From the NCBI GenBank assembly GCA_030583825.1, contig CP129477.1, forward strand, positions 622,491 through 686,490: a DNA stretch of 64,000 bases, written 5' to 3'. Each line of letters starts with the position of its first letter. Position 1 is the stretch's first letter. A program made the translations under genes and the position numbers. This DNA is from Candidatus Dojkabacteria bacterium. GTDB taxonomy: Bacteria; Patescibacteriota; Dojkabacteria; GCA-002793355. The notes beneath the pieces were generated by a model that had not been told where the DNA came from, searched no databases, and saw nothing but the letters and a program-made list of their open reading frames with translations. Positions 42,294 to 50,254 of the stretch are shown in pieces.

Positions 42294-44864
42294 ATGAAAA
42301 GACAAGCACGCAAAGAATTTCTTGATATGCCTGTTTCCAGGTTCTCAGATCCTCTCTATTTTGCTCTGAAGAATGCCGAAAAAGCAGCAAAAATCTCGGG
42401 TGAAATAGAAATTACTCCGAAATTATTATTCGTAGGATTACTTCTTGATAAAGACTCACTCGCATTTTTCCTTTTAGACAAATTGAATATTGACTCGTCT
42501 GATGCAATTAAAAAGTTAACTGGCTATTCTGAGCAGAGAATTCTTGCAATCTCTGAGCGAAGCAAAAAAGCAAAAGTAACACTTTCAGTAGATGCAAAGC
42601 GACTCATTCTTGATGCAATGCGAATTGCACGCGAAGGAAAAGGATATTACGTTGGTACAGAGCATATTTTGCTTGCACTCCTTAAAAATCCTGAAAAAGA
42701 CCTCGCATTTCTTGCGGATATATCAGGTGTAGTTCAAGGAATGCCTAACTTTACGGGAGAAGTCCTGCGTGCAACTGTTTCTCCATTTGAAATGCTAAAG
42801 CAGGTTGAGACTGTGTTGCAGTCGCCGGCAAAGCCATTACCTCAGGCAGCACAGGAAGGCGTTGAAGGAGTATTGGCAATGTTTACTGAAATAATGACAG
42901 CAAAAAATCGCAGATTCCGCAGTACAGTGACCAAAAACGCAAGAAAAGATTACACAGATAAAATTTTTGGAAGCTTTTTACGTCAGACATATAAGAATGT
43001 ATTGCTTGTTGGCGCAAGCGGTATTGGAAAGTCTGCAGTTGTCGAAGAGCTCGCTCATCGCCTTATTACTGGTGATGCTCCATTGTCACTTCGTGAAAAA
43101 CAGCTACTAAAGATCAATATTCCAGCAATGATTGCAATGGCAAAGTTCCCCAATGAGCTCGATAAACAAGTATTAAACATTCTTAACGAGGCATATGGAG
43201 ATGATAGTGCGGTATTGTTCTTTGACGATATTCACACACTTATTGGAAGCCAAATGCGTGGTGGAATGAACATGGCAATGAGTATGAAACCGTTCTTAGA
43301 ATCAGGAGAAGTTAACATTATTGCAACGATGCCTGACGACGAATATCGTGCTCTTTCAGACTCTCAGCGAGGGTTTTTCCGTTATTTTACAGTAATCGAA
43401 ATGACTGAACCTTCTGAAGATGAGGCAGTTGCGATGATCAAAGATGAAGTAAAAGAACTCGAAAAGAAACATAAAGTAAAAATTGACGAAAACGCAGTTA
43501 AAGCAGCAGTATCTCTTGCAGATAGCTACTTGAACGAAAGAGTATTGCCCGATAAAGCTGTTGAATTACTCGACATTGCCGCAAGTAAGTATCACTTTGG
43601 TCATGAATACTCGTTAAAAAGTCTTGGAAAACTCATCGCAGAAGAAAACGAAATGAGAGAAACCAAAGAGCGTCTTATTGGAATGGGTGACTACGATGCA
43701 GCAGATGCCCTCCGCAAACGCGAGAAATTAATCCAAAAACGAATAAAAGAAGAGAGAAAGGCTATTGGGGTGAAAAAGACTCTTCCGCGCGTAAAAGAGC
43801 AGGATATTAAGAATCTGATTGCAGAGCTAACCAAATTGCCTGTTGCAACAATTACAAACAACGAAATGTCGGCGCTTGTAACACTTGAGGCATCTATTCG
43901 TTCAAAGATTATTTCCCAGGAAGACGCAATTAAGCGCGTTGTCAGTGCAGTAAAGCGTGGAAGAATTGGAATTTCAGATAAAAATCGTCCATGGGCAAGC
44001 TTGTTATTCTTAGGCCCGACCGGCGTAGGAAAAACAGAGTTAGCAAAAGTGTTGTCTCGATTGCTATTTGGTGATAACGAAGAACGCTTGATTCAGATTG
44101 ACATGAGTGAATTCATGGAACAGCACAGTGTTTCTAAGCTTATCGGCTCCCCTCCGGGGTATGTTGGTTTTGAACAGGGTGGCATGCTTAGCGAAAAGAT
44201 TATGGATAATCCGTATAGCGTGGTACTTTTCGATGAAATCGAAAAAGCTCATCCAGAAGTATTAAACATTCTTCTTCAGATTCTTGAAGATGGCCATTTG
44301 ACCGATTCACGAGGAAACAGAGTGAGTTTTCAGAACACAATCGTTATTTTGACCTCAAATATTGGTGCAGAAAAGATTGCAGAAGACAAAGTTCTCGGTT
44401 TTTATCGCGAAAGAACTAATGAAACCATGCCAACTCAGGATTATGAAGCAGTGAAAGACAGGCTTATGAAGGAGTTAAAGAAGCGATTGCGTCCGGAATT
44501 GATTAATCGTCTCGACGATGTTGTTATCTTTAAGTCGCTTACCAAAGATGATGCCTCTAAAGTGCTTGAAATTCTTGTTGCAGACCTCGCAAAGCGTATT
44601 GAACATTTGAAACTCTCTCTTCAGCTTGGTGAAAAGGCAAAGAAACAGCTTTTGCACGACGGATTCAGCAATGAATACGGTGCACGTCAGTTGCGAAGAA
44701 TGCTTCAACACGAAATTGAAGACTTAATTGCTGACCATGTGCTTGAAAAAGGCCTTCTTGATGCGCAGGAAGATACAAAGAAGCAAGAGGCGTTAGCGAT
44801 TGACTATGATAGCAGGAAAAAGCTGTACCAGATTATGGAAAGAGCTGCTGCAAAGAAAAAGTAG
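42294..44864 (+). CDS. Clp/Hsp100-family AAA+ ATPase (ClpC/ClpB-like) with two nucleotide-binding domains
   Basis: N-terminal Clp_N repeats; D1 Walker A GASGIGKSAVVEELAHRL; D2 Walker A FLGPTGVGKTELAKVLS; sensor-2 GARQLRR; 856 aa. The putative -10 GCTATAAT lies 7 nt before the ATG, suggesting a leaderless transcript. Confidence 0.8.
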   Translation: MKRQARKEFLDMPVSRFSDPLYFALKNAEKAAKISGEIEITPKLLFVGLLLDKDSLAFFLLDKLNIDSSDAIKKLTGYSEQRILAISERSKKAKVTLSVDAKRLILDAMRIAREGKGYYVGTEHILLALLKNPEKDLAFLADISGVVQGMPNFTGEVLRATVSPFEMLKQVETVLQSPAKPLPQAAQEGVEGVLAMFTEIMTAKNRRFRSTVTKNARKDYTDKIFGSFLRQTYKNVLLVGASGIGKSAVVEELAHRLITGDAPLSLREKQLLKINIPAMIAMAKFPNELDKQVLNILNEAYGDDSAVLFFDDIHTLIGSQMRGGMNMAMSMKPFLESGEVNIIATMPDDEYRALSDSQRGFFRYFTVIEMTEPSEDEAVAMIKDEVKELEKKHKVKIDENAVKAAVSLADSYLNERVLPDKAVELLDIAASKYHFGHEYSLKSLGKLIAEENEMRETKERLIGMGDYDAADALRKREKLIQKRIKEERKAIGVKKTLPRVKEQDIKNLIAELTKLPVATITNNEMSALVTLEASIRSKIISQEDAIKRVVSAVKRGRIGISDKNRPWASLLFLGPTGVGKTELAKVLSRLLFGDNEERLIQIDMSEFMEQHSVSKLIGSPPGYVGFEQGGMLSEKIMDNPYSVVLFDEIEKAHPEVLNILLQILEDGHLTDSRGNRVSFQNTIVILTSNIGAEKIAEDKVLGFYRERTNETMPTQDYEAVKDRLMKELKKRLRPELINRLDDVVIFKSLTKDDASKVLEILVADLAKRIEHLKLSLQLGEKAKKQLLHDGFSNEYGARQLRRMLQHEIEDLIADHVLEKGLLDAQEDTKKQEALAIDYDSRKKLYQIMERAAAKKK

Positions 44865-44926
44865 CATGATAACTCCCAATATATTGGATCTATCGTAAAA
44901 TCATATTTCTCGCGATATAATTGTGT

Positions 44927-46240
44927 ATGTACGTATGCCGAAACTGCGGATATGCCGCAGCAAAATGGAGTGGAAAATGTCCAAACTGTGGAGAGTGGGG
45001 AACACTTGACGAGTCAAATATGCCTGTAAAAAAGAAAGCAGGGAAAGTATTACAGCCGGTATATGGCGCGGATCTCGTAAAAGCAGCAACGATTCCTGAA
45101 TCAAAGCTGGAAAAACTCTCAACTGGTTTTACTGAAATAGACCGAATTTTAGGTGGTGGAATTGCACGAGGAGCTGTTACTCTTGTTGGTGGTGATCCTG
45201 GTATTGGGAAATCCACGTTATTATTACAGGTTCTCGCGTATATTGCATCGGAAGGGCATACTGTAGCGTATATCTCTGGTGAAGAATCACTTGCACAGCT
45301 TTCCTCACGACTAAAGCGATTACTCTCTAAAATCCCTGATACTTTGCTTATGGGAACAGATACCGATCTTGAATCAGTGGTAGGAAGCCTTTCTCGTCAA
45401 AAGCTCGACTTTGTTGTTATTGACTCAATCCATTCTCTCACAGATGCAAATACAGAAGGAACATATGGAGGAATTAGCCAATTGAAAATGGTTACAAGTT
45501 CTCTTACGCAATGGGCAAAAAAGAACGATACAGGTATGTTTCTCGTTGGCCAAGTAACAAAAGAAGGGTATGTCGCCGGCCCAAAGAATGTAGAGCATAT
45601 TGTTGATACCGTTATGTATATTGAGCGCCTTGGCGACGAAAATATTCGTTTAGTCCGCACAGTAAAAAACAGGTTTGGGGAAGTCGGGGAGGTCGGATTT
45701 TTGAAAATGGCAGGCAAGGGATTGGAAGATAAAACTGATTTCAGTCGAATGCTTGTGGAAGAAAGCGCTGTGTCGCTTCCTGGTGGAGCTTTGGGGATTA
45801 CATTACAAGGAAGTCGTCCAATTATGGTGCATTTACAAGTCCTTACTAATGACACAATGTTTGCAGTTCCACGACGGGTTGTAGACGGAATCTCGAAAAA
45901 TAAAGTTGAAGTACTTGCTGCTGTGATTGCAAAAAAGCTTCCAAAGCTTTATTTAGACAAAAAAGATATATTTATTAAGGCAAATGGAGGAATTTCACTG
46001 AAAGATCCTGGCATTGACCTAGCAATCATCGGTGCAATTCTTTCGTCTGTGTTGAATGTATCATTTGAAACAACAGTTTTTATTGGGGAAGTAGGTCTTC
46101 AAGGTGAAATTAAGGCATGCGCGGGATTCGATGCTCGCCTAAAAGAAGCAAAGAAGCTTGGATTTACAAATATCGTTACTTATAAAACCGTTTCTCATAT
46201 CTCAGAGATTCTGGAATTCTTAAAGAAGAAAGTTTCATAG
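44927..46240 (+). CDS. radA: DNA repair protein RadA/Sms
   Basis: Zn finger CRNCGYAAAKWSGKCPNCGEWG, RecA-like Walker A GGDPGIGKSTLLLQV, KNRFG motif and a C-terminal Lon-protease-like domain. Confidence 0.9.
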   Translation: MYVCRNCGYAAAKWSGKCPNCGEWGTLDESNMPVKKKAGKVLQPVYGADLVKAATIPESKLEKLSTGFTEIDRILGGGIARGAVTLVGGDPGIGKSTLLLQVLAYIASEGHTVAYISGEESLAQLSSRLKRLLSKIPDTLLMGTDTDLESVVGSLSRQKLDFVVIDSIHSLTDANTEGTYGGISQLKMVTSSLTQWAKKNDTGMFLVGQVTKEGYVAGPKNVEHIVDTVMYIERLGDENIRLVRTVKNRFGEVGEVGFLKMAGKGLEDKTDFSRMLVEESAVSLPGGALGITLQGSRPIMVHLQVLTNDTMFAVPRRVVDGISKNKVEVLAAVIAKKLPKLYLDKKDIFIKANGGISLKDPGIDLAIIGAILSSVLNVSFETTVFIGEVGLQGEIKACAGFDARLKEAKKLGFTNIVTYKTVSHISEILEFLKKKVS

Positions 46241-46385
46241 CGGAACCATTCTGTCGCATACCGTATTATCGCTGTTTTAATGCTATGTTCCACGAATCGT
46301 GTCCTTCTGGTGGTTTCGACTCACAAATATTTCTCATAGACCACAAGGTTACGTTAAAGGTCTTTTTCCCGATAGATACAGGCAG

Positions 46386-46415
46386 TTGACATTATTCTGA
46401 ATATTTAGTTATAAT
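46386..46415 (+). promoter_or_regulatory. Consensus sigma-70-type promoter P1 (TTGACA, 18-nt spacer, TATAAT)
   Basis: TTGACA at 46386-46391 and TATAAT at 46410-46415. Confidence 0.6.
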
Positions 46416-46457
46416 ACTACAGGTTTGATAGAAAGAAACTATAAACCAAAGCAACTA

Positions 46458-46486
46458 TTGACAATCATAGTCTGAGTAGGTATAAT
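46458..46486 (+). promoter_or_regulatory. Consensus sigma-70-type promoter P2 (TTGACA, 17-nt spacer, TATAAT)
   Basis: TTGACA at 46458-46463 and TATAAT at 46481-46486; both hexamers perfect with optimal spacing. Confidence 0.65.
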
Positions 46487-46632
46487 ACTCTTACAATCGC
46501 AGACTTTTCCCTGGGTTTGGAACTATCTGAGCCCAAGGAAAAGCTCTGTGAGAGATTTAGAAAGACATTAGAAACCTGATGTTTTACTAAAGGGATCGGT
46601 CTGGGGCAGTGCCGATCCCCTCTCCGTTTTTT
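46487..46632 (+). ncRNA. Putative ~140-nt small RNA (or structured rho leader segment) bounded by P2 and a terminator-like hairpin plus T-run
   Basis: No ORF. The segment ends with GGGATCGG...CCGATCCC...TTTTTT at 46592-46632 and is followed by a separate rho promoter-like TTGCAT-16-TACAAT. Confidence 0.35.
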
Positions 46633-46826
46633 AAACAAAAACAATCACACTTTAATAACAATCAAACGTTGGAAACTTCATACTTGCATTTTTCCTCAAA
46701 ATATTTACAATGAAATAACTATCCCCGTCGTGGATATATTCAACCTCACAAATTCACATTTAATTATGTCGAAACCAAATCAACCGCAATGCGCGGAAGA
46801 GAAATTAAGTTAATGTCCTTTTATTC

Positions 46827-48092
46827 ATGTTTACTGCACAAAAATTAGCCGAAGATACGGTTGCAAACTTACTGAAAGTTGCTGTCGAAATTGGCGGCAA
46901 AGAGAAAGCAAAAGAGCTTGAAAAATTTCAAAAACCAGAACTAATCAAATTTATTCTCGAAGAGTCAGCAAAGAAAGATGGCTATGAATATGCCGGTGGA
47001 ACTCTCGAAATTATGAATGGCGGTGCACACGGCTTTTTACGAGTTGATGGAGTACTTCCAAGCCAAGGAGATGTTTATGTTTCTGGCACTCAAATTCAAA
47101 AATTCCATTTACGAACAGGTGATGTCGTTGAAGGTGTTGTCCGCAAGTCAAAAGAAAGCGAAAAATATCGAAACATGCTTAAAGTTGATTTCGTTGGTGG
47201 GCATCCTGCAGCAGACGTATTAAAGCGACAGCCATTTGAAAAGAAAACTCCAATTTTCCCAAATAGACAAATAAAGCTTGAGACTACCTCAGATATTCTC
47301 TCGACACGTATGATTGATATGCTTTCTCCAATTGGATTTGGACAGCGTGGTATGATCGTTGCTCCTCCAAAAGCGGGTAAAACCTGGCTTTTGAAGGATA
47401 TTGCAAACGGTATCACTGCAAACAATCCAAATGCAAAGCTTATGATCATTCTTGTTGGTGAGCGTCCTGAAGAAGTCACAGACATTCGTCGCTCGGTAAA
47501 TGGAGAAGTGATTGCATCGAACTTCGATGAAACTCCAGAAAATAACACAAAAGTCGCAGAAATGGGACTTGAAAAAGCAAAACGAATGGTAGAGTGGGGT
47601 GAAGATGTCATTATCCTTATGGATAGCATCACACGTCTTGCACGATCATATAACCTTGTGGTTCCAAGCTCAGGCCGAACACTTTCAGGTGGTTTTGACC
47701 CAGTTGCATTGTATCCTCCAAAGAAATTCTTTGGTGCTGCACGTAACTGCGAAGAGGGTGGAAGCTTAACAATCCTCGCAACTGCATTGATTAACACAGG
47801 TAGCCGTATGGATGACCTCATTTATGAGGAATTCAAAGGTACCGGTAACATGGAGCTTCATCTTGACAGAAGTCTTGCAGAGCGACGTGTCTATCCATCT
47901 ATTGATGTTACAAAATCAGGTACTCGACGTGAAGACTTGCTTCTTGATCCTTCTATGCTTCAGATGTCATGGTTACTCCGAAAGATGCTTGATACTCTTG
48001 AAAAGAACAACGAAAATCCAGCAGAAGTGCTTGTTGAAAGAATGAAAACTTCAAAGAGCAATATGGATTTCTTGAAGAACTTGAGAGCGTAG
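46827..48092 (+). CDS. rho: Transcription termination factor Rho
   Basis: N-terminal RNA-binding/CSD region, Walker A (GQRGMIVAPPKAGKTWLLKDIA), Q-loop and R-loop, catalytic C-terminus; 421 aa. Confidence 0.9.
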   Translation: MFTAQKLAEDTVANLLKVAVEIGGKEKAKELEKFQKPELIKFILEESAKKDGYEYAGGTLEIMNGGAHGFLRVDGVLPSQGDVYVSGTQIQKFHLRTGDVVEGVVRKSKESEKYRNMLKVDFVGGHPAADVLKRQPFEKKTPIFPNRQIKLETTSDILSTRMIDMLSPIGFGQRGMIVAPPKAGKTWLLKDIANGITANNPNAKLMIILVGERPEEVTDIRRSVNGEVIASNFDETPENNTKVAEMGLEKAKRMVEWGEDVIILMDSITRLARSYNLVVPSSGRTLSGGFDPVALYPPKKFFGAARNCEEGGSLTILATALINTGSRMDDLIYEEFKGTGNMELHLDRSLAERRVYPSIDVTKSGTRREDLLLDPSMLQMSWLLRKMLDTLEKNNENPAEVLVERMKTSKSNMDFLKNLRA

Positions 48093-48210: not shown

Positions 48211-48543
48211 ATGGGAAAGAAAGTTACCGTTAAACAGGGTGAACAGCTTGTCTTGTTAATGACGTGCCAGAATTTAGAAGTAACATTAGCAGGTGACCAT
48301 CAAAGCGATGTTTCCCAGTTTGGTGAAGTCAGCTATGATGTTGATGAATGGAATGATTGGACTTATCTTTCTCCCTTTGAAGGGAAAGAACTACATATTT
48401 CTGATTTGCCAACTATCCCGTTTGGAATTTATTTCCACGATGTTGGGGAAGAATTCACTATACGGTTTACTCCGACTAAAGAAATGACTGTTCTAGTAGA
48501 AAGTATTGATGTTGGAACTATTCCACTTTCTACGCTAGATTAG
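48211..48543 (+). CDS. Small hypothetical protein, paralog A of a four-gene tandem family
   Basis: 110 aa with RBS AGGAG. Shares the N-terminal pattern KKVTVKQGEQ...LEVTLAG and the C-terminal motif (TIPLSTLD) with the three downstream genes. Confidence 0.6.
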   Translation: MGKKVTVKQGEQLVLLMTCQNLEVTLAGDHQSDVSQFGEVSYDVDEWNDWTYLSPFEGKELHISDLPTIPFGIYFHDVGEEFTIRFTPTKEMTVLVESIDVGTIPLSTLD

Positions 48544-48697
48544 TCTATATGAGTTACGCTGGGGAGAAAACAGTTGCATCTTCGAATACAGAAGTTTTTT
48601 CCCTTGCCTAACACCTTTTTTCAATTAAAACTCTCTCTTTATATCTTATAGTTGTGGTATAATTCTTGGACGTTCGATCATCTAGGAGCACGTGTAT

Positions 48698-49015
48698 ATG
48701 CTGAAGATTCAGGTGGGAAAGAATACGCCAAGTTTCGCACGGACTGTCGTTGTTAAAGCTACCAGCGCTGGGAAGCTTGTTATCCTGGCGGATGAAGAGG
48801 AGGTATCAATATCAGACGCGTCATCTAACATTGAAACAGTCATTACTGGCACGAATCCCACAGGAGTTTTGGTAAACGGAGTGAAGTATGACTCTGTTAT
48901 TGTTGTCACTAATACAGGGATGACAGAATTCTCTTGGTCGGTAAATTTTGGGCAACGGTACTATAACGAAAAGCTTCCAATCACCATAACACCTATGGCT
49001 ATGTCCAATGATTGA
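48698..49015 (+). CDS. Small hypothetical protein, paralog B
   Basis: MLKIQVGKNTPSFARTVVVKA... and C-terminal KLPITITPMAM. RBS AGGAG 9 nt upstream, own promoter TGGTATAATTC, own terminator downstream. Confidence 0.6.
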   Translation: MLKIQVGKNTPSFARTVVVKATSAGKLVILADEEEVSISDASSNIETVITGTNPTGVLVNGVKYDSVIVVTNTGMTEFSWSVNFGQRYYNEKLPITITPMAMSND

Positions 49016-49176
49016 AGAACGCCGGCAGGGCAGAGTATATAACACAATACATCCCTGCAGGCTTTTTTCCTTTTCGAATGTTAACTTTATGTAGTCAGTT
49101 CTCCCCATATTTCTTTACTTTGTACGTATTATAGGGTATAATTCGAGAGTGTTTTTTAGCGAAAGGAACGTAGAAA

Positions 49177-49473
49177 GTGGTACTTGAAGTGCAAATTGGC
49201 GAAGGTAACCCCTTCACGGTAGAAACAGTCTTTGTTGAGGGTGAAGACGATGTAGTTACGCGCCTCTTCATTGATGATGAAGAACTTGTTCCTGAGTTTC
49301 CAGTTCGTGTTCATGTTCGAGCTTTTGGCGGAATCCAAACCTCCAATGCGGGCAATCATGACGAAATGACTGTGTACTTAGGTATCCACCAAATGCCCGA
49401 TGCGGCGTATTTCAAGGATGGGATAGCCAGCCAGAAAGTTCGCAATTTCCCCGTTGAAATCACCGCGCTATGA
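49177..49473 (+). CDS. Small hypothetical protein, paralog C (GTG start)
   Basis: VLEVQIGEGNPFTVETVFVEG... clearly aligns with paralog B's LKIQVGKNTPSFARTVVVKA; C-terminal NFPVEITAL. Confidence 0.6.
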   Translation: MVLEVQIGEGNPFTVETVFVEGEDDVVTRLFIDDEELVPEFPVRVHVRAFGGIQTSNAGNHDEMTVYLGIHQMPDAAYFKDGIASQKVRNFPVEITAL

Positions 49474-49648
49474 CCGACCCTAAAAACTAAAAAACTTTTT
49501 ATGAACCAGCCGGGATATCCCAAATGAAAATATATCCCCGCTGGTTTTTCCTTTTATTTTCCTCTAGAAATTCGCAAACACCTTTATTTATTCCGCATTA
49601 TAGGATACAATACTATATCGCACATTGTATAGCTTGGAGTTCATTATC

Positions 49649-49978
49649 ATGTTAGTGAAGTTGGTAGTAAAGAACGGTGACAGCACCAAAGTAATCTTGA
49701 CCCCCAAAGTTGAGATTGATGCAGAGTGGAATATTCTCGCACACGTCCCTGTAGAAATAGAAGGGTATACAAGCATAGAAATTCATAATGCTTCGGGTAA
49801 CCTTAGAGAAGTGAGACTCTCTTTTGGTGAACGTTCTGTGTCCTGCATCTGGGCAACTATCTATCTCAATAAGCCCGGAAACTATATATTCTTTTTTCCA
49901 CCGAGAGATAGTGGCATCCCGACCCCAGAGTGGTTTATTTACACAAAAGAACTTCCTCTCACTATCACCGCGTCCTAA
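49649..49978 (+). CDS. Small hypothetical protein, paralog D
   Basis: MLVKLVVKNGDSTKVILTPKVE... with C-terminal ELPLTITAS. Preceded by a terminator (CCAGCCGGGATAT...ATATCCCCGCTGGTTTTT) and a -10 TACAAT. Confidence 0.55.
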   Translation: MLVKLVVKNGDSTKVILTPKVEIDAEWNILAHVPVEIEGYTSIEIHNASGNLREVRLSFGERSVSCIWATIYLNKPGNYIFFFPPRDSGIPTPEWFIYTKELPLTITAS

Positions 49979-50254
49979 ACATCCATTAATCCCCAGCAGG
50001 GAAAAATTTCTCATAATTTGCAACCTCCCTGCCGGTATACCCCTTAGACTTTCAGAAACTTCTCCCTCAATATCCTTTCCAATTTTGTCTCGATCAAACA
50101 AAACTCACGACAAAACTCTCTTTACACTTCACCTGTTCGCTCTCCAACTCATAAAATAGATATATCCTAGAGGAAAATATCTTGTTCACACTACAATACT
50201 CAATTTCAACATACAAAATTTGCGGGGGAATGCTCATGCTGTTATACTGTCTCC

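Follow-up and report, generated by a model that had tools for sequence, protein, structure and literature searches.

Why should a bacterium place two perfect promoters in front of DNA that opens onto no reading frame? The question is raised by a short segment between radA and rho in Candidatus Dojkabacteria (WS6; Candidate Phyla Radiation, CPR/Patescibacteria). It lies within a 64-kb stretch of contig CP129477.1, which is called here the window and whose positions serve as coordinates throughout. A sequence-only reading of this DNA had seen in the segment either an independent small RNA (sRNA) or an attenuator/antiterminator RNA that adds to Rho autoregulation. Comparison with relatives makes it very probable that the window holds here one member of a conserved family of sRNA genes transcribed from a promoter of their own. 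The family is new; in kind it is a bacterial structured small RNA, a class of element already known, and its association with rho and with phages is unusual.

The two promoters, P1 and P2, are as exact as that reading had described them. They are the only perfect TTGACA-N16-18-TATAAT sites on both strands of the 64 kb, where 0.05 are expected, and two such sites were found in 0 of 100 shuffles of the window. No open reading frame (ORF) of at least 30 amino acids starts on the + strand between P2 and the hairpins that follow it, again in agreement with the reading. Transcription from P2 is predicted to start at ~46493 and to yield an RNA of ~140 nucleotides (nt), while a predicted start at ~46422 for P1 would give an RNA of ~211 nt. 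The shorter product (46493-46632) folds into three hairpins, H1, H2 and H3, at -65.5 kcal/mol, as against -35.5 +/- 3.8 in shuffles (z = -7.86).

In 26 genome loci of Dojkabacteria, the core of H3 (TGGGGCAGTRCCGATCCC) recurs at 130-200 nt before rho, and an exact-pattern scan of metagenomes adds at least 120 loci that carry it. Among the metagenome matches listed, ~95 have rho 106-500 nt downstream, at least 10 are real copies of the RNA without rho downstream, and three are chance matches in GC-rich coding DNA. Once duplicates are removed, genomes and metagenomes together provide 118 distinct RNAs, which make up the family set. A covariance model (R1) trained on 17 relatives, the window not among them, matches positions 46481-46632 on the + strand at 88.9 bits (E = 3e-22), and this is its only credible match in the window. 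The segment is thus clearly conserved upstream of rho, and the refutation that the sequence-only reading had set for itself, a lack of such conservation in relatives, fails. The RNA is a single-copy gene, and the Dojkabacteria gene order, window included, is clpC-radA-RNA-rho, continued in relatives by an M23/LysM peptidase and tRNA genes. The family is defined by this context and by a near-perfect promoter 130-290 nt upstream of H3; P2 was scored as that promoter, its distance to the H3 loop core in the window being 115 nt. A promoter of at least 11/12 precedes the RNA in 111 of the 118 loci, a U-rich tail (at least 7 T in the 10 nt after H3) follows it in 95, and in 102 the 170 nt after H3 contain a separate promoter of at least 10/12. 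Together with the R1 match and with the covariation described below, these counts bear out the first of the two options, the independent sRNA. The RNA is apparently part of the core genome and very highly expressed.

Only one of the two promoters belongs to this family. Tandem promoters of at least 11/12 are limited to 2 of the 118 loci, those of the window's strain and of L011, and alignments with the closest relatives (L001, L084, L192 and L095) contain no counterpart of P1. P2 is therefore the orthologous promoter and P1 a lineage-specific addition, as judged from these alignments, and the idea of tandem promoters as a family trait has to be given up. A small hairpin in the P1-P2 spacer would be carried by the P1 transcript only, and the relatives' alignments hold no segment homologous to it. 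The sequence itself is real and no assembly artefact, since an identical Rho is encoded in five further public assemblies, and the radA-rho spacer is 100% identical in all four that were aligned. This Rho is found in SRR24881069, DRR779145, DRR859392, DRR859401 and SRR29109021. These four copies, being identical, carry no evolutionary information; the nearest Rho proteins in GTDB genomes, at 62-69% identity, are also from Candidatus Dojkabacteria. Two mechanically called ORFs run over the RNA gene, one of 59 amino acids with a TTG start (46465-46644, - strand) and one of 34 amino acids with a GTG start (46609-46713, + strand). Both are almost certainly spurious, because relatives show compensatory substitutions and insertions of variable length there. 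A small peptide (ATG TGG ATA TCT TAG) seen in some relatives was dropped as a candidate, its start codon not being conserved.

The evidence that the RNA is maintained as a structure comes above all from H1. This is a rod of 22-24 base pairs (bp), with a core of the form CCC-NNN-RYYYGG ... CUGRRY-NNNN-GG on a lower stem of 8-10 bp. Across 104 unique copies, the 22 stacked positions are 90% canonical, compared to 37-59% when the 3' strand is slid, and the 17-sequence alignment has 18 of its 24 H1 pairs changed on both sides. Amid this exchange some features are invariant: a G-C pair, a G.U pair, a U.G pair (98/104) and two C-G pairs, along with a single C that is mismatched (C.A, C.C or C.U) in 96% of the 104 copies. 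When the whole structure (H1 and H3) is considered, 95.7% of cells pair, as against 38-49% after sliding, and the covariation score of the family alignment was reached by 0 of 500 shuffles. The window carries a minimal form of H1 with a 6-nt loop (AACTAT, 46521-46526). Its core arms, CCCTGGGTTTGG (46509-46520) and CTGAGCCCAAGG (46527-46538), are the hairpin pair that the sequence-only reading had picked out, and they follow the family pattern: G-C, G.U and U.G cap the core, two C-G pairs are present, and the mismatched C46511 faces A46536. That all this might be a chance arrangement of promoter-like and hairpin sequences without function has only the AT-rich intergenic context in its favor; conservation, covariation, the fold z-score and the promoter statistics refute it, and its probability is next to nil.

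H3 has the family stem GGGRUCGGU/RCCGAUCCC and a loop core GGGGCAG. The window conforms to the pattern, with the core at 46603-46609 in a loop one base longer than usual. The terminator described earlier here, GGGATCGGT/GCCGATCCC followed by six T, is present in its parts, but T6 (46627-46632) does not abut the hairpin: it starts 7 nt past H3, from which it is separated by CTCTCCG. A simple terminator scan made no call at this site. A 4-bp outer helix that encloses H2 and H3 may bring T6 closer, and a purine tract pairing with the tail in the same manner is seen by eye in L008 and L011. At the other end of the RNA, a motif G(U/A)UCUUUAA lies at +5..+9 after the -10 box, with no more than one mismatch in 55 of the 118 RNAs (its frequency in random 40-nt windows is ~1%); the window has only a degenerate version, ACUCUUACAA. 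H1 is present 1-4 times per RNA. Matches to it are almost confined to the RNA gene (163 of 168), and no H1-like operator sites were found in mRNAs. At one locus upstream of rho (L010:2390-2600), H1 is present as two tandem modules (CCCTGGGTTGG..CTGACCCAAGG) and H3 is replaced by an ordinary small terminator, and in CPR3 (L066) the entire RNA consists of a promoter, the H3-type hairpin and T6. Since H1-only and H3-only versions exist, the two are separable modules. In one lineage (L018:1-1093), a 16S ribosomal RNA (rRNA) gene is found ~1.1 kb upstream of the RNA gene, and the RNA there (L018; L134:2353-2477, - strand) has three H1 copies plus a fourth H1-like 5' motif.

Positions of the features around the sRNA gene (window coordinates) and of its copies on phage or phage-like contigs (contig coordinates)
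Feature	Position	Strand	Basis or context
ClpC/ClpB-type ATPase (flanking)	42294-44864		Pfam
RadA gene (flanking)	44921-46240		Pfam
P1, perfect sigma-70-type promoter (TTGACA-18-TATAAT)	46386..46415	+	12/12 in promoter scan
Small hairpin (GGTTTGATAG..CTATAAACC) in P1-P2 spacer	46422..46447	+	Fold prediction
P2, perfect promoter (TTGACA-17-TATAAT)	46458..46486	+	12/12; orthologue of the family's single near-perfect promoter
Degenerate copy ACTCTTACAA of the family 5' motif G(T/A)TCTTTAA	46487..46496	+	Aligned under GTTCTTTACA
H1, rod-like hairpin	46497..46551	+	Fold and covariation
Outer helix, 5' strand (GAGA)	46552..46555	+	Encloses H2 and H3; pairs with TCTC 46621-46624; minimum-energy fold
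H2, hairpin variable in sequence and length across the family	46556..46591	+	Fold, alignment
H3, terminator-type hairpin (stem GGGATCGGT/GCCGATCCC, loop CTGGGGCAGT)	46592..46619	+	Conserved core
Outer helix, 3' strand (TCTC), then CG, then T6	46621..46632	+	Presumed 3' end of the RNA
G-poor, C>G spacer and rho leader, rut-like	46633..46826	+	Composition
rho, 421 amino acids	46827..48092	+	Pfam Rho_RNA_bind and ATP-synt_ab; neighbor conserved across lineages
Full copy (promoter, 5' motif, H1, H2, H3; no U tract), IMG/VR viral contig L202	2286-2474	-	Between RecT/YqaJ operon and replication-type genes
3' part (linker, H2, H3), IMG/VR viral contig L201	10702-10848		Intergenic, upstream of YqaJ-RecT
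H1 and H3, metagenome contig L125	1912-2023		Immediately upstream of terminase genes
H3 at tip of long hairpin, metagenome contig L199	1110-1246		Between convergent phage-like genes

None of the known RNA families accounts for this structure. Searched with Rfam 15 at gathering scores, the whole window gives tRNA-Lys only, as it does with ARAGORN, and 40 relatives' loci give nothing at the RNA. The covariance scan of the segment that had been recommended returns no family even under permissive conditions: positions 46200-46900 yield noise only at E <= 10, and L016 and 16 further loci yield no consistent match at E <= 5-10. No description of the RNA was found in the literature, papers on the discovery of non-coding RNAs included. 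The best partial match in Rfam is between the long H1 hairpin of L016 and Listeria rli48 (RF01479), at 31.5 bits (E = 4e-4 in a small search). This is far under the gathering score of 100, neither the window nor 16 other loci match, and kinship with rli48 was set aside as a chance resemblance of the H1 shape in one relative.

A single-copy, highly expressed core gene, with copies in phages as is the case for tRNA and transfer-messenger RNA (tmRNA) genes, could also be a universal RNA, such as the signal recognition particle (SRP)/4.5S RNA, 6S RNA, Y RNA or similar, so divergent that the Rfam models miss it. The YUGG/CUGG wobble motif does occur in helix 5 of Escherichia coli 4.5S RNA, a 4-bp likeness that is too short to mean anything. 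However, SRP, 6S, tmRNA, RNase P and Y RNA have no match at E <= 5-10 in the window, L016 or 16 other loci, the GNRA-tipped helix-8 motif is missing, and the ends do not pair into a rod with a central bubble. A divergent universal RNA is thus very improbable. SRP RNA in particular was rejected, since no helix-8 motif was found in 1.5 Mb of DNA and no SRP match in Rfam, and 5S, 6S, tmRNA, RNase P, Y RNA and rRNA fragments do not fit by Rfam, ARAGORN or architecture.

Part of the RNA reaches beyond Dojkabacteria. Of 24 CPR rho loci from elsewhere, 7 have a perfect hairpin of 12-23 bp upstream of rho, with an (R)GGGCAG loop on unrelated stems; CPR3, Daviesbacteria, Curtissbacteria and other Patescibacteria are included, and in L044 the hairpin RNA is ~95 nt long. 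Across phyla, all 12 apical pairs of H3 change on both sides around an invariant GGGCAG, in statistics that are partly a matter of selection, as these hairpins were located by a hairpin search. Despite this selection, seven GGGCAG hairpins at the position upstream of rho cannot be chance. Most of these loci lack RadA on the upstream side, so that rho is the neighbor that persists.

The RNA is found in phage or phage-like DNA as well, where its copies adjoin RecT/YqaJ, terminase or lysin genes. They could be host RNAs that have been hijacked or mimicked, leader elements acting in cis, or att-site remnants of integration into the RNA gene. No integrase was seen near them by eye, with no domain search made. 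Scans of viral contigs with H1 16-mers gave only chance matches in coding DNA.

What might such an RNA do? The explanation that we prefer as a whole, a conserved sRNA with a protein-binding, termination-linked role and with read-through into rho in this strain, is held tentatively, at a little less than an even chance. The RNA would be transcribed from P2, and in this strain also from P1, the ~140 and ~211 nt products ending at the U tract 46627-46632, and it would act mainly in trans by binding a protein. H1, with its invariant tandem G.U/U.G pairs, two C-G pairs and mismatched C, would form one likely recognition surface, and the H3 loop GGGGCAG a second. Protein binding is suggested by invariant non-Watson-Crick features inside a covarying helix, by the repetition of H1, and by the lack of a seed or of an enriched loop complement. 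The most likely partner would be the transcription termination/antitermination machinery, either Rho or a Nus-type complex. This link is drawn more weakly, from the persistent adjacency to rho, the boxA-like 5' motif and the phage copies at operon heads. That the RNA binds a protein through a mechanism related to termination is, taken alone, a rather doubtful proposition. Abundant structured RNAs that bind proteins through a repeated module with invariant nucleotides are known from CsrB/RsmZ, which bind CsrA, and 6S RNA, which binds RNA polymerase, and H1, present 1-4 times, resembles them in this respect. Unlike in CsrB/RsmZ, the conserved GGA of H1 sits in a stem, paired with UCC, while the loops vary and no GGA-in-loop motifs occur; unlike 6S RNA, the RNA is not a rod with a central bubble.

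With a promoter, hairpins and an intrinsic terminator, the RNA is laid out like a typical sRNA, and its H3 loop or a linker could base-pair with a target, for example at the start of rho translation. A precedent exists in SraL, an enterobacterial sRNA reported to pair with the rho 5' untranslated region and to shield it from premature termination. SraL is likewise a small RNA functionally tied to rho expression; in contrast to the Dojkabacteria RNA, it is encoded away from rho and acts by base-pairing, whereas no conserved pairing with rho mRNA was found here, and the two have no sequence kinship in Rfam. In many relatives, purine-rich linkers are complementary by eye to AAUUUCCC, which lies before the rho start codon. 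This pairing is not kept in the window, where rho has a purine-rich Shine-Dalgarno-like site. Furthermore, the window shows no enrichment of CTGCCCC, to which the H3 loop is complementary; inspection of the alignments by eye revealed no conserved seed in single-stranded stretches, and the nucleotides that are conserved lie inside helices. A base-pairing role in the manner of SraL is accordingly improbable. The rho start region itself varies within the phylum: in most Dojkabacteria (L002-L028), rho has no Shine-Dalgarno-like sequence and the conserved AAUUUCCC is found 10-20 nt upstream of the start codon, while the window has GGAAGAGAAA in its place. AAUUUCCC also resembles the 5' strand of H1 (UUUCCC), besides being complementary to the purine-rich RNA linkers.

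The 5' motif and the phage copies invite another explanation, processive antitermination of the nut/put kind, in which Nus factors, or a protein dedicated to the task, are loaded onto the polymerase by a boxA-like sequence and hairpins and make it resist terminators farther down, within and past rho as well as in the early operons of phages. G(U/A)UCUUUAA is found at +5..+9 in about half of the family, the promoter is exceptionally strong and here in tandem, as in rRNA operons, and phage copies are placed at the head of operons or between genes, the one on L202 lacking a U tract. The same combination is known from the put RNA of phage HK022 and from boxA/nut sites in rRNA operons and in lambdoid phages: strong, sometimes tandem promoters, a 5' boxA-like motif followed by hairpins, and a place at the head of phage early operons. 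But a good intrinsic terminator closes the host copies of the Dojkabacteria RNA, a separate promoter comes after it, and these copies behave like genes in their own right; the match to boxA is partial and located at the extreme 5' end, the motif is degenerate in the window, and the hairpins have no resemblance to boxB or put stems. A second boxA-like sequence, CUUCGAU, seems by eye to form the 5' strand of H2 and so would not be single-stranded; the candidate GCUCUUCGAU in the linker was dropped for this reason, its CGAU being apparently part of that strand. Antitermination of this type is quite improbable.

The last alternative is that nothing acts in trans at all. P1 and P2 would be the main rho promoters, H3 and its U tract a leaky attenuator, and Rho would autoregulate in the spacer, with the short RNA as a by-product of a purely cis-acting leader. 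The window offers points in its favor. The promoter scan has nothing of at least 9/12 between 46487 and 47989, so no such promoter separates the RNA from rho; 7 nt lie between H3 and the U tract; and the spacer is G-poor, with 5.9% G in 46633-46717 and a C/G ratio of 3-3.8 (78-nt windows), where the 99th percentile for the whole window is 2.8. The adjacency of RNA and rho also holds across phyla. The promoter TTGCAT-16-TACAAT (46684-46711) that the sequence-only reading had assigned to rho matches at 8/12 only, which is below the scan threshold. The family tells otherwise: H3 is followed by a promoter of at least 10/12 in 102 of 118 loci, the U tract comes directly after H3, the RNA is retained at loci that have no rho downstream, and attenuation needs neither the strong conservation of H1 nor its duplication. 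A purely cis-acting leader is therefore unlikely. As for the second option of the sequence-only reading, an attenuator/antiterminator adding to Rho autoregulation, the weak rho promoter, displaced U tract and G-poor spacer keep it alive, for this strain in particular.

Within the preferred explanation, a trans-acting RNA with strain-specific read-through, these local traits find a place. The window's strain differs from its relatives in four ways: the extra perfect promoter, the U tract 7 nt off H3, the absence of a rho promoter of at least 9/12, and the long G-poor spacer. Taken together, they make it plausible that read-through from P1/P2 contributes to rho transcription in this strain and that Rho stops it in the rut-like spacer. 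Some P1/P2 transcripts would enter the spacer in this strain only, and abundant Rho could terminate them there, which would provide a homeostatic input to rho expression. In E. coli, rho is autoregulated by Rho-dependent attenuation in its leader (the rhoL region). Both systems have non-coding DNA upstream of rho, and the G-poor, C>G stretch between a strong promoter and rho in the window is reminiscent of that leader. However, the conserved unit in Dojkabacteria is a discrete terminator-bounded RNA with its own promoter, most relatives have a separately promoted rho, and the two show no similarity in sequence or structure.

Several observations weigh against the preferred explanation. Both ends of the RNA are predictions from sequence. 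The link to rho could be a matter of inherited gene order (clpC-radA-RNA-rho), since at least 10 RNA loci are without rho downstream and ~17 of the 24 non-Dojkabacteria CPR rho loci are without the hairpin; the selection in the pairing statistics of the remaining ones has been mentioned. The 5' motif overlaps the expected start of transcription and could be a promoter or initial-transcribed element instead, and its resemblance to the boxA consensus (GCUCUUUAACAA-like) is partial, the motif being degenerate in the window. Finally, the G-poor spacer is weakly conserved, the family-wide C/G ratio having a mean of 1.43 and exceeding 1.5 in 27% of loci.

Other features of the locus touch these questions less directly. 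The DnaA-box-like site that had been read as TGTGGATAT in the rho leader is in fact CGTGGATAT (46729-46737), a 7/9 match to TTATCCACA / TGTGGATAA; with no cluster of boxes nearby and no turn of the cumulative GC skew in the window, its reading as a DnaA box is not supported. TGTGGATA in relatives, considered as DnaA boxes or oriC, was set aside: it sits in the 5' leader before the lower H1 stem, and the window has neither cluster nor skew turn. Most Dojkabacteria relatives do have, between radA and the RNA promoter, a composite motif made of a DnaA-box-like 9-mer and a repeated heptamer (TTATCCACA-N4-6-CGTAACA-N15-25-CGTAACA). It lies ~150-250 nt upstream of that promoter in L004-L028 and L018 (e.g. 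L018:1975-2040; L005:395-450) and is absent from the window. Further copies of TGTGGAT flank the RNA promoter in relatives. A small GC hairpin (CCGCAATGCGCGG, 46783-46797) directly precedes the purine-rich ribosome-binding stretch of the rho leader; its reverse strand is called terminator-like by the scan, and the hairpin could affect rho translation or mRNA stability. Downstream of rho, where relatives carry the M23/LysM peptidase, the window has a run of small + strand ORFs (48211-50159) with no recorded Pfam match, of which only the 110-amino-acid one was searched directly; in the identical strain, the products called at this place have 110, 105, 98 and 109 amino acids.

A large share of bacterial diversity belongs to CPR/Patescibacteria, and to our knowledge almost nothing is known of their non-coding RNAs. 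The RNA described here combines clear covariation, an unusual helix motif, a loop shared across phyla, adjacency to rho and copies in phages. One may go further and imagine that the H1 modules and the GGGGCAG loop bind either Rho or the Nus/RNA polymerase elongation complex and titrate or reprogram it, that phages use copies of their own to disarm host termination on early operons, and that the locus of this strain couples rho expression to Rho activity through read-through; this extended scheme is a speculation that we regard as unlikely. Should binding to Rho or to the Nus machinery prove true, the RNA would represent a termination regulator of a new kind. Whatever its function, it is a well-defined new RNA family, fit for inclusion in RNA databases and for searches of metatranscriptomes.

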